Sequence record: PP925831.1
From: Escherichia phage Pinarejo
Length of the DNA stretch: 64,000 nucleotides
Strand: one strand, 5' to 3'
Part shown: positions 34,083 to 35,699 of the stretch, one piece after another
How positions within the stretch are numbered: the first letter of the stretch is position 1
Layout: every line of letters starts with the position of its first letter
The notes under the pieces: model-generated
Database searches by the model: none
Seen by the model: the letters and a program-made list of their open reading frames with translations, nothing else
Told to the model about the DNA's origin: nothing
Program-made: the position numbers and the translations under genes

Positions 34083-35098
34083 TGTGTTGCCTCTACATAT
34101 AGCTGATTTGCATATTGAATAAGTGCTTCACGGTCAGAATCAGTGATGTCTGGAATTGCATTAATGTATTCTTCCATCAACGTCTGAAGAGATTGAACTT
34201 CAACTTCTTCACTGTCATCTGACTCGACAGAGTTATCAATCTTTGACACAACTCGTAATGAATGCACAACTTTTTCTAGTTCAGATTCGAACTTCGTTAG
34301 ATTTTTGTCTACTTCAGTTACTATAACACGTACTGATAGATTTGTAAAATCTTTATAGTCAATTTTTCCTTTAAATGGATAATGAATTCTACGATGCCAG
34401 GTAGTGTTGTTTGGAATAAATTCCATTCGTTCTGTTTCTGTATCAAACATCCAGAACCCACGAGGGTCATTCTCGTCACCTGCAGTTAGTGTCCATGGTG
34501 TCCCAATATATCTGACGTTAGCAGCCTCAGAGATAGTATGGAAGTGACCAGACCACACTTCTTTATAAGTCTTAAGGAAATCAGGTTCAAGACCGTGAGA
34601 TTTCATTCCTTTATAAAAATAAAATCCATTCAGTTCCCAGTGACCAACACAAAAAGAAGCAGAAGAAGTTTTTATGTGCTCGAGAATTTCACCAGTATTT
34701 TCTTCACACATCCAAGGAATCAAATCAATCAAACACCCGTCAAAATCTACTGTAGTAGGCTTATCATATACTTTAACATTAGGATATTTAGCCAAAAGCT
34801 CAGTAGAGGCATTTGGATGCATTACATTTTTGTAGTGGAGATCGTGATTTCCTACAATAGTATGTAATGTGATTCCAGCACCATCAAGCATTTGAACTAT
34901 TTCACGGGCAAACTCCATAGTTTTATGCGTGATCGCTTTTCGCACATCAAAAATATCACCGTATTGAATCCATACCGTAATTCCATTTTTCTTAGAATAT
35001 TCTATCGCTTGCTTAATTCCATCAATTTGAATACCGCGAATCCACTCATCATCAGCTTTAACGCCTAAATGCCAATCACCCAAGTTTAGTATTTTCAT
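34079..35098 (-). CDS. 47: recombination endonuclease subunit (Mre11/SbcD-like)
   Basis: 339 aa; phosphoesterase motifs GDWHLG, GNHD. Confidence 0.9.
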   Translation of the reverse strand: MKILNLGDWHLGVKADDEWIRGIQIDGIKQAIEYSKKNGITVWIQYGDIFDVRKAITHKTMEFAREIVQMLDGAGITLHTIVGNHDLHYKNVMHPNASTELLAKYPNVKVYDKPTTVDFDGCLIDLIPWMCEENTGEILEHIKTSSASFCVGHWELNGFYFYKGMKSHGLEPDFLKTYKEVWSGHFHTISEAANVRYIGTPWTLTAGDENDPRGFWMFDTETERMEFIPNNTTWHRRIHYPFKGKIDYKDFTNLSVRVIVTEVDKNLTKFESELEKVVHSLRVVSKIDNSVESDDSEEVEVQSLQTLMEEYINAIPDITDSDREALIQYANQLYVEATQ

Positions 35099-35699
35099 GG
35101 TGTCTTTTCCATCCTAATTTAGCTGCTTTTGAAACTAGTTCTTTAATTTTTCCTTTTGTCCATTCAGGACCAGGAGGTTCATGACATAACATTTGCTTAA
35201 CTCCGTTATTATACCATTTTTTACCTTTATTATGCGATGAAGCTTTAAATTTATTTGACCTTCCTTTTACATAACCTTCTGGAATATAAGGCAAAAAGGC
35301 AGATTTTCCTGTTAATGGATCATGTGAATGTATATTTCCTTTACAATTATGAGAACCATATAATGGATGATTTTGTCCTTTATTATCTCTTCCAAATGAA
35401 CCTTTTGGAGCAGCATATGACATATTAAAGAATAATGGATTTTTAACTGCGTCATGCAATCGTTGATAATATAACTCGCATTTAATAGCTTCTTCACGCG
35501 TATCAAATTCAGCTAAAATACATGAATCAAATAAGTGAGGATTATCTGAAAGCTCTTTATTATAAATTTTCTTATACTTTTTAGATAAAACTGAACCATG
35601 ATATCCAGCTAAATGCCTATCTAAAGACGTAGATCCAATATAAAAAGGAGGAAGTTTATCTCCACTATATATTGTTAAATAAGTTATATATTTTTTCAT
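35076..35699 (-). CDS. GIY-YIG homing endonuclease (Seg-like)
   Basis: 207 aa; TIY-x9-YIGST, Arg/Glu/Asn spacing as in GIY-YIG, NUMOD3-like NHPLYGSHN; overlaps gene 47 start. Confidence 0.65.
   Translation of the reverse strand: MKKYITYLTIYSGDKLPPFYIGSTSLDRHLAGYHGSVLSKKYKKIYNKELSDNPHLFDSCILAEFDTREEAIKCELYYQRLHDAVKNPLFFNMSYAAPKGSFGRDNKGQNHPLYGSHNCKGNIHSHDPLTGKSAFLPYIPEGYVKGRSNKFKASSHNKGKKWYNNGVKQMLCHEPPGPEWTKGKIKELVSKAAKLGWKRHHENTKLG

Follow-up and report, generated by a model that had tools for sequence, protein, structure and literature searches.

The 64,000-nucleotide (nt) stretch of Escherichia phage Pinarejo analysed here (sequence record PP925831.1; below, the window, to whose positions all coordinates refer) contains an open reading frame (ORF) for a protein of 207 amino acids (aa) at 35076..35699 on the minus strand, between genes 47.1 and 47. 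In our view this ORF is the gene of a free-standing GIY-YIG homing endonuclease of the T4 SegA/B/C type that is active or has recently been active. We put the probability of this reading at roughly three in four; our confidence in any specific target site is lower. A Seg-like GIY-YIG enzyme had been proposed in a preliminary description of the locus, and the proposal is supported by the free-standing nature of the gene, by a GYxGS motif shared with SegA/B/C, by a ...PEGWxKGR motif shared with SegB and by the absence of the gene, with exact boundaries, from T4, T2 and T6. The ATG-initiated frame is present in the ORF listing at the positions first given.

Family assignment, fold and catalytic residues

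A GIY-YIG profile match, foreseen in the preliminary description, was obtained with Pfam (PF01541, residues 4-84, E = 3.1e-4), but its score of 21.4 bits does not reach the gathering cut-off of 22.6. The PHROGs matches are phrog_10820 (E = 1e-94), which carries the label 'HNH endonuclease', and phrog_314 ('homing endonuclease', E = 5e-18); a search of NCBIfam returned no meaningful match. HMMER searches of the Protein Data Bank (PDB) sequences, run with the single sequence and with a 50-sequence profile, matched neither I-TevI nor any GIY-YIG chain. The family is thus too divergent for HMMER and a comparison of folds was required.

An AlphaFold2 model computed on the homologue alignment has a mean predicted local distance difference test score (pLDDT) of 86.7, with values of 93-98 over residues 1-90. 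The modelled catalytic domain consists of β-strands 4-11 and 19-25, a short helix 26-30, helix 40-52, β-strand 57-65 and helix 68-81, and contains the three-stranded sheet flanked by helices that characterizes the I-TevI/UvrC fold. In a Foldseek comparison with the PDB, ranks 1-3 were taken by the I-TevI catalytic domain (entries 1LN0 and 1MK0; probability 0.97-1.00, target template-modelling scores 0.56-0.60) and rank 4 by Slx1. The sequence and the model indicate that the protein is a divergent GIY-YIG nuclease, with a predicted nuclease domain spanning about residues 1-100. These N-terminal ~100 residues are common to the 170 homologues found in a large protein database, the C-terminal halves of which differ; among 50 sampled homologues, Pfam NUMOD3 is found in 24 and Pfam GIY-YIG is weakly matched in 13. 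A modular pattern of this kind is expected for GIY-YIG homing endonucleases (PMC1564403).

The key residues of the catalytic domain are Y7, Y20-I21-G22, Y33, S39, K40, R68, E75 and N92. In the alignment of 50 homologues Y33, S39, L56, F57, A71, E75 and N92 are invariant, and Y7, T9, Y11, G13, Y20, I21, G22, S23, G35, K40 and R68 are nearly so. The family N-terminal domain was compared by profile-profile alignment (hhalign) with I-TevI and T4 SegA/B/C, the Seg sequences being translated from the T4 record; the alignment has a probability of 89.6%. The catalytic domains could be aligned by hhalign only once SegA/B/C were added as bridging sequences; when the full-length family was compared with I-TevI alone, only the NUMOD3-like stretch was aligned, with a probability of 24.6%. 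The bridged alignment pairs Y7 with I-TevI Y6, Y20-I21-G22 with Y17-V18-G19 and N92 with N90, an asparagine specific to the homing-endonuclease/UvrC lineage. E75, which closes an A-x-x-x-E pattern in the modelled helix 68-81, falls one position off I-TevI E75. The tyrosine of the first ('GIY') motif, on β-strand 1, is Y7 in 'ITY', and Y11 is the second conserved tyrosine of the same strand. The motif had earlier been read as TIY-x9-YIGST: T9-I10-Y11 and Y20-I21-G22-S23-T24 are indeed present, but the spacing is 8 and the profile alignment makes Y7, not Y11, the GIY tyrosine.

An arginine, a glutamate and an asparagine had likewise been noted at GIY-YIG-like spacing. R28, E75 and N92 exist and the latter two are invariant, but position 28, an arginine in the window protein, is R, K, N or E among the 50 relatives, and the I-TevI segment that contains Arg27 lies opposite a gap in the profile alignment. 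SegA/B/C show this gap against I-TevI as well. Both they and the endonuclease family have G-Y-x-G-S in place of the segment, in the form of DDGYMGSG in the Seg proteins and of GYHGS here. Judged by the alignments, the canonical catalytic arginine (I-TevI R27) appears to have no conserved counterpart in the family. SegB is an active enzyme (PMC2330249) and is gapped likewise, and the missing Arg27 helix is therefore no argument against activity. The invariant Y33 and S39 and the near-invariant K40 might substitute for the arginine, and we infer that K40 is a candidate for the phosphate-contacting basic residue.

The C-terminal half of the model comprises two β-hairpins (123-136 and 161-172) and a terminal helix (186-204). 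The hairpin ends carry P-E-G-(Y/W)-x-K-G-(R/K)-like motifs (PEGYVKGR and PEWTKGK), and in the alignment to the family hidden Markov model (HMM) the second of them corresponds to the C-terminus of SegB (MWIH...IPEGWFKGRK). The NUMOD3-like element NHPLYGSHN of the preliminary description is present at residues 110-118, but it represents only the first half of the unit; the helical half is missing and Pfam NUMOD3 (PF07460) does not match the protein at E <= 1. Its GQNHPLYG sequence is located where relatives start a true NUMOD3 unit (GxNxPxYGKxHSEETKxKIS), which is found at the aligned position in the 24 homologues mentioned above, and is weakly aligned with I-TevI residues 171-196 (24.6% probability). 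The longer orthologues from the phages AV116 (267 aa) and avDM2 (249 aa) have an additional C-terminal tail that resembles the SegA C-terminus. The C-terminal half is presumed to be an extended DNA-binding region made up of a half-NUMOD3 element, two β-hairpin modules and a terminal helix.

The 601-bp cassette and its distribution

The features of the locus and the evidence for them are as follows.

35076..35699, minus strand: putative free-standing homing endonuclease gene, 207 aa; its ATG overlaps the 47.1 stop (ATGA) and its stop TGA (35076-35078) lies inside gene 47 codons 7-8 (GGT GAT).
35099..35699, minus strand: 601-bp cassette, from the endonuclease ATG to the base preceding the gene 47 ATG; absent exactly from T4, T2, T6, RB10, RB14, RB18 and most other Tequatrovirus records; boundary ambiguous within a 7-nt repeat.
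35400..35699, minus strand: GIY-YIG catalytic domain, residues 1-100 (profile, alignment, model and fold match).
35079..35399, minus strand: presumed DNA-binding region, residues 101-207 (alignment and model).
35693..35699, minus strand: left copy of the 7-nt direct repeat ATGAAAA, at the endonuclease gene start (sequence).
35092..35098, minus strand: right copy of the 7-nt direct repeat ATGAAAA, at the gene 47 start (sequence).
35081..35092, minus strand: gene 47 codons 3-6 (ATA CTA AAC TTG), a candidate resistance patch or co-conversion tract (alignment with T4-type genomes).
35696..35836, minus strand: gp47.1 orthologue, 46 aa, left flank (phrog_6693 and comparison with T4/T2).
34079..35098, minus strand: gene 47, Mre11/SbcD-like nuclease subunit, right flank and presumed target; its 5' end encodes phosphoesterase motif I (GDWH) (Pfam and T4 collinearity).

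When the interval between gene 47 and alpha-gt is compared across T-even genomes, as the preliminary description had suggested, T4, T2 and T6 are found to lack exactly 601 bp. The T4 and window junctions were aligned by eye, MAFFT having misplaced the gap. The T4 junction reads ...CTTGATAT ATGAAAAT TTTAAATTTAGGTGATTGG and that of the window ...CTTGATAT ATGAAAAA ATAT...(cassette)...GACACC ATGAAAAT ACTAAACTTGGGTGATTGG. The difference to T4 and T2 corresponds to the endonuclease ORF less its 23-nt overlap with gene 47, and the repeat ATGAAAA bounds the insert. The 47.1-coupled start that is used by gene 47 in T4 has been taken over by the endonuclease gene, the frame of which ends at a TGA inside the motif I codons of gene 47.

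A megablast search with window positions 34900-36100 matched 521 phage records. The whole interval (coverage of at least 80%) is held by 68 of them, or about one in eight T4-type phages, and in T4, T2, T6, RB10, RB18 and the rest both flanks are matched across the 600-bp interval. At least ten Tequatrovirus phages with RefSeq accessions are carriers (for example teqhad, ECO4, G4507, G28, G9062, NBG2, GiZh, PhiZZ23, fPS-90 and Lutter), so that the distribution is patchy. The shortened interval in KNP1 and KNP5 was considered as a decaying copy of the cassette and rejected, as it is a run of N in an unverified assembly. With the endonuclease protein as query, tblastn (E <= 1e-3) found 174 phage records, in 50 of which the protein identity is 99% or higher. 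The catalytic domain recurs in paralogues that lie between other core genes: at gp19/gp20 of Pectobacterium phage PM2, ahead of the DNA topoisomerase II gene of Klebsiella phage Mexia and between neck genes of Agrobacterium phage OLIVR5, a phage with five copies. No second copy of the family was found within the 64-kb window.

The gene does lie between alpha-gt and gene 47, as had been stated, but its immediate neighbour on that side is 47.1 and not the a-gt gene (35876..37078; Pfam AGT, E = 1.8e-237). It is on the same strand as 47.1 and 47 and overlaps both with its start and stop; the 23-nt overlap with the start of gene 47 agrees with the earlier account. Gene 47 (339 aa) is collinear with T4 gene 47 and its product is a calcineurin-like phosphoesterase (Pfam Metallophos, E = 2.9e-8). 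The membrane mini-ORF that had been placed at about 35701..35835 has the 46 residues ascribed to it but occupies 35696..35836, stop included, and ends in the ATGA that opens the endonuclease ORF. Its product matches phrog_6693 (E = 1.5e-31) and is orthologous to gp47.1, which is annotated in both T2 and T4 and is predicted to be a membrane protein; the window copy differs from that of T4 by 2 nt. As 47.1 is found whether the endonuclease gene is present or, as in T4 and T2, absent, it is a flank that lies outside the mobile element.

A promoter scan near the endonuclease gene revealed no sigma-70-like excess and no T4 late-promoter box (TATAAATA), and a promoter of its own was rejected on these grounds. 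The gene is best read as part of a 47.1-47-46 transcription unit, with its translation coupled to the 47.1 stop through the ATGA. Low expression by co-transcription and coupling is typical of phage homing endonucleases. The a-gt stop is directly followed, at 35859..35878, by a GC-rich hairpin (AAAGGGCUUCGGCCCUUU) with perfect pairing and a UUCG loop, which is identical in T4 and T2 and is called a 'terminator' in some records.

Residence at gene 47 and the recoded codons

In six further phages an orthologue with 49-80% identity directly precedes gene 47: Salmonella phage SEA1 (Gelderlandvirus), Klebsiella phage SmallBear, Serratia phage LC53 (Winklervirus), Escherichia phage QL01 (Dhakavirus), Escherichia phage AV116 (Mosigvirus) and Aeromonas phage avDM2 (Biquartavirus). 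The position is thus shared by seven Straboviridae genera in all. Gene 47 is the constant partner, the upstream neighbour in several of these phages being neither 47.1 nor a-gt. Pairwise ratios of nonsynonymous to synonymous substitution (dN/dS) among the seven orthologues are 0.08-0.28, with dS above 1 and hence saturated between genera; the ratios indicate that the endonuclease protein is under purifying selection and, together with the 170 homologues, that the ORF is not a chance ORF. Between genera, the identity of the endonuclease is about equal to that of gp47 (79 versus 73% for the window and SEA1, 53 versus 52.5% for the window and avDM2). This parallel divergence points to a long residence at the site, rather than to recent jumps between genera.

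A second insertion at this position was noted in a TG1-like Yersinia phage (IMG/VR IMGVR_UViG_2706796796_000001, 162,101 bp; L032), in which an unrelated SegA/B/C-type GIY-YIG gene of 224 aa lies immediately upstream of gene 47 (11563..12344). Upstream of this gene, 51 nt are left of the original 5' end of gene 47 (MKIIQSGDWHLGVKNDD), 49 of them identical to the intact start in the relative L030, and downstream of it there is a complete gene 47 with a divergent 5' end; L030 itself is uninterrupted. With two unrelated GIY-YIG lineages at the 5' end of gene 47, the stretch that encodes gp47 motif I has been targeted by homing endonucleases more than once and stands out as a hot spot of homing.

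The first codons of gene 47 differ between carriers and non-carriers. In the sequence-checked cassette-free Tequatrovirus genomes (T4, T2 and the matching IMG/VR contigs) and in some more distant phages the gene starts ATG AAA ATT TTA AAT TTA GGT GAT TGG, and in carriers it starts ATG AAA ATA CTA AAC TTG GGT GAT TGG. There are therefore four synonymous changes within the 12 nt that adjoin the cassette, and none over at least the next 60 nt. Linkage was counted with two chimeric BLAST queries. The recoded patch is present in 72 of 73 carrier records, the T4-type codons being retained in one (ERS-1), whereas about 430 of about 440 non-carrier records have the T4-type codons and about ten have the full patch, to which RB14 adds one of the four changes. 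Empty 47.1/47 junctions with all four changes were noted in SHFML-26 (KX130862, 100383-100457), PV295200, PV368562, PQ356294, OV877085 and PQ493298; the RB14 record is FJ839692. The empty-site genomes with the patch either have lost the cassette precisely or preserve the allele that first received it.

Among the carriers, T4-type codons 3-6 are confined to ERS-1 (PP337211, 28946-31422). This record bears the mark UNVERIFIED_ORG and is full of homopolymer indels, and its endonuclease copy contains several single-base ones, the mark of an error-laden assembly or of a pseudogene. We therefore set it aside as a counter-example, and take it neither to support nor to refute immunity. The linkage of patch and cassette would look like co-conversion of the donor flanks or like a resistance allele, but it is not universal: SEA1 and its L035-type relatives, which are identical here, and the empty sites with the full patch rule out codons 3-6 as a universal signature of immunity.

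Proposed homing cycle, alternative readings and relatives

The analysis establishes the fold and family of the protein, the exact boundaries of presence and absence, the patchy distribution, the conserved position across genera and the purifying selection; nuclease activity, target site and homing are inferred. In a mixed infection, the enzyme would cut the cassette-free allele either around the 47.1/47 junction or within the opening codons of gene 47. The break would be repaired by phage recombination with the cassette-bearing genome as the template, and the 601-bp cassette would be copied into the recipient together with the adjacent few codons of gene 47. The carrier genome would be spared through the splitting of the site by the insertion, through the recoding of codons 3-6, or through both. 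It may be that the cleavage site simply spans the 47.1/47 junction and is split by the insertion, and any such site is to be taken as hypothetical.

Several observations weigh against an active, homing enzyme of this type. The Pfam score lies below its cut-off, although this is a curated threshold and no biological feature, and the HMMER searches of the PDB sequences matched no GIY-YIG chain. The catalytic arginine appears to lack a conserved counterpart, and the 202-210-aa forms, among them the window protein, do not have the helix-turn-helix-like tail of the 250-310-aa relatives. Divergence in step with gp47 fits long vertical residence as well as it does active homing. With regard to the patch, its tight linkage to the cassette is equally expected from common descent of all carriers, the named non-carriers SHFML-26, BCPEco_001, Ec_YwIITB1, UGKSEcP1 and EPIMAM01 have it in full, and the gene 47 start of the carrier SEA1 is identical to that of cassette-free L035-type relatives.

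One alternative reading is that of a decaying or inactive homing endonuclease which has lost its catalytic arginine and C-terminal helix-turn-helix and is kept only by its linkage to the essential gene 47. The variable position 28 and absent I-TevI R27 helix, the short protein compared with its 250-310-aa relatives and the alignment of some Tequatrovirus copies in two pieces, possibly through frameshifts, would all be accounted for in this way. A decaying gene, however, would not be expected to show dN/dS values of 0.08-0.28 (dS being saturated between genera), an intact 202-210-aa form in the examined Tequatrovirus, Gelderlandvirus, Winklervirus and Dhakavirus phages and in a Klebsiella phage, or 50 records with protein identities of at least 99%; moreover, T4 SegA/B/C are without the same helix in the alignment, yet SegB is active (PMC2330249). 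We consider decay quite unlikely. The gene could also have been domesticated, its product serving the phage as a nuclease or DNA-binding protein that excludes co-infecting relatives by cutting their gene 47 or that regulates the expression of 47 and 46. There is a precedent in T4, whose Seg enzymes are established agents of marker exclusion (PMC2330249, PMC2988022), and the constant position in seven genera, a protein divergence about equal to that of the core protein gp47 and the strong purifying selection are in keeping with such a role. The gene is dispensable, however, since most Tequatrovirus genomes are without it, and this is the pattern of a selfish element; domestication therefore seems to us very unlikely.

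The remaining alternative is found in the databases, where all of the labels are automatic and include 'hypothetical protein', 'putative homing endonuclease' and 'HNH endonuclease'. The last of these is the product name on many records, among them NC_054911, NC_054919, NC_054933, NC_054916 and NC_055723, where RefSeq and pharokka-style annotations follow the label of PHROG 10820, and also on several GenBank entries. As the protein has no Pfam HNH family match at E <= 1, as its fold matches GIY-YIG nucleases only and as the GIY-YIG motif residues are conserved, the label is wrong; an HNH identity is refuted by the fold and profile results, and the chance that it is nevertheless correct is negligible. 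A Seg-type GIY-YIG homing endonuclease thus remains the reading that we prefer.

The resemblance to T4 SegA/B/C lies in a free-standing gene on the strand of the flanking genes, which it overlaps, in a similar size (207 versus 140-221 aa), in the common GYxGS motif and, for SegB, in a C-terminal 'W...PEGWxKGR' module present in both. The overall similarity is very low: in a six-sequence search the family HMM scored 19.4 bits against SegC and 9-12 bits against SegB, although YIG, GYxGS, the glutamate, the asparagine and PEGWxKGR align consistently. The Seg genes of the T4-type phages were apparently not detected by tblastn, given 174 records compared with 521 flank-matching T4-type records. The endonuclease described here also differs from the T4 Seg proteins in its locus at the 47.1/47 junction, in the lack of a full NUMOD3 repeat and in a β1-β2 hairpin that is two residues longer (Y7-x12-Y20).

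I-TevI, which is encoded in the td intron, is the best structural match of the catalytic domain (1LN0/1MK0), with equivalent Tyr, Tyr, Glu and Asn residues. It shares the two-domain architecture of nuclease and DNA-binding region, and GxNxPxYG aligns with its NUMOD3 region (24.6%, a low probability). In contrast to I-TevI, the endonuclease is not intron-encoded and has neither a zinc finger nor a helix-turn-helix; the identity is ~19%, and the Arg27/His31 helix is replaced by a short turn and GYHGS. Relatives annotated as 'homing endonuclease' or 'GIY-YIG homing endonuclease' in Klebsiella phages KP185, KMI12 and Mexia, Serratia phage LC53 and Yersinia phage TG1 belong to the same family (E = 1e-38 to 1e-89), and in LC53 and some others the gene is likewise inserted just ahead of gene 47. 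Their names are computer annotations only, and several of them differ in their C-terminal modules, which are NUMOD3 repeats, and in where they are inserted.

The window is collinear with T4 coordinates 1 to about 67 kb. Compared with T4 it is without the mobA/gene 60 insert region (about 1.1 kb), segF, segA with b-gt, mobB, the nrdD intron with I-TevII (about 1.0 kb) and mobD, the differences being located at 2793-2858, 15042-15073, 22730-23677, 37069-37094, 43791-43794 and 53772-54735; T4 mobB sits on the other side of a-gt. The complement of mobile endonucleases thus differs from that of T4, as the preliminary description had it, but not every gene is at a new locus: a mobC orthologue, an HNH gene, is found at the T4 mobC locus (41886..42521, minus strand; phmmer E = 7e-145). 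It is the only HNH gene detectable in the window with T4 Mob proteins and is probably the HNH gene mentioned in that description. At the mobD position there are two unrelated ORFs (53771..54268 and 54235..54759, minus strand), and between uvsX and gene 42 a 282-aa ORF (22823..23668, minus strand) replaces T4 segA and the β-glucosyltransferase gene. T2 and T6 carry a β-α-glucosyltransferase gene at this position; were the ORF its counterpart, the phage would be of T2/T6 type in glucosylation.

No endonuclease gene at the 47.1/47 junction is described in the literature that was consulted, which included a review of T4 mobile elements, a GIY-YIG phylogenomics paper and the SegB paper. The gene is an uncharacterized addition to a well-known class of homing endonucleases and leaves the established picture of Seg-type homing unchanged; the evidence supports the record name 'GIY-YIG (Seg-type) homing endonuclease'. 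What it adds is a free-standing enzyme whose candidate target is clear, namely the 47.1/47 junction or the opening codons of the Mre11-like gene 47. The carriers, the empty sensitive-type sites of T4 and T2 and the SHFML-26-type empty sites with the patch provide natural material for T-even crosses. On account of its presence in seven genera, its divergence in step with gp47 and the purifying selection, the element might even be a long-term resident of the Straboviridae at the start of gene 47, maintained by cutting the Mre11-like gene of co-infecting rivals with a variant GIY-YIG site that, as in SegA/B/C, lacks the canonical arginine. We regard this extended reading as unlikely; were it true, the gene that is cut in rivals would be the very gene needed for the processing of double-strand breaks.

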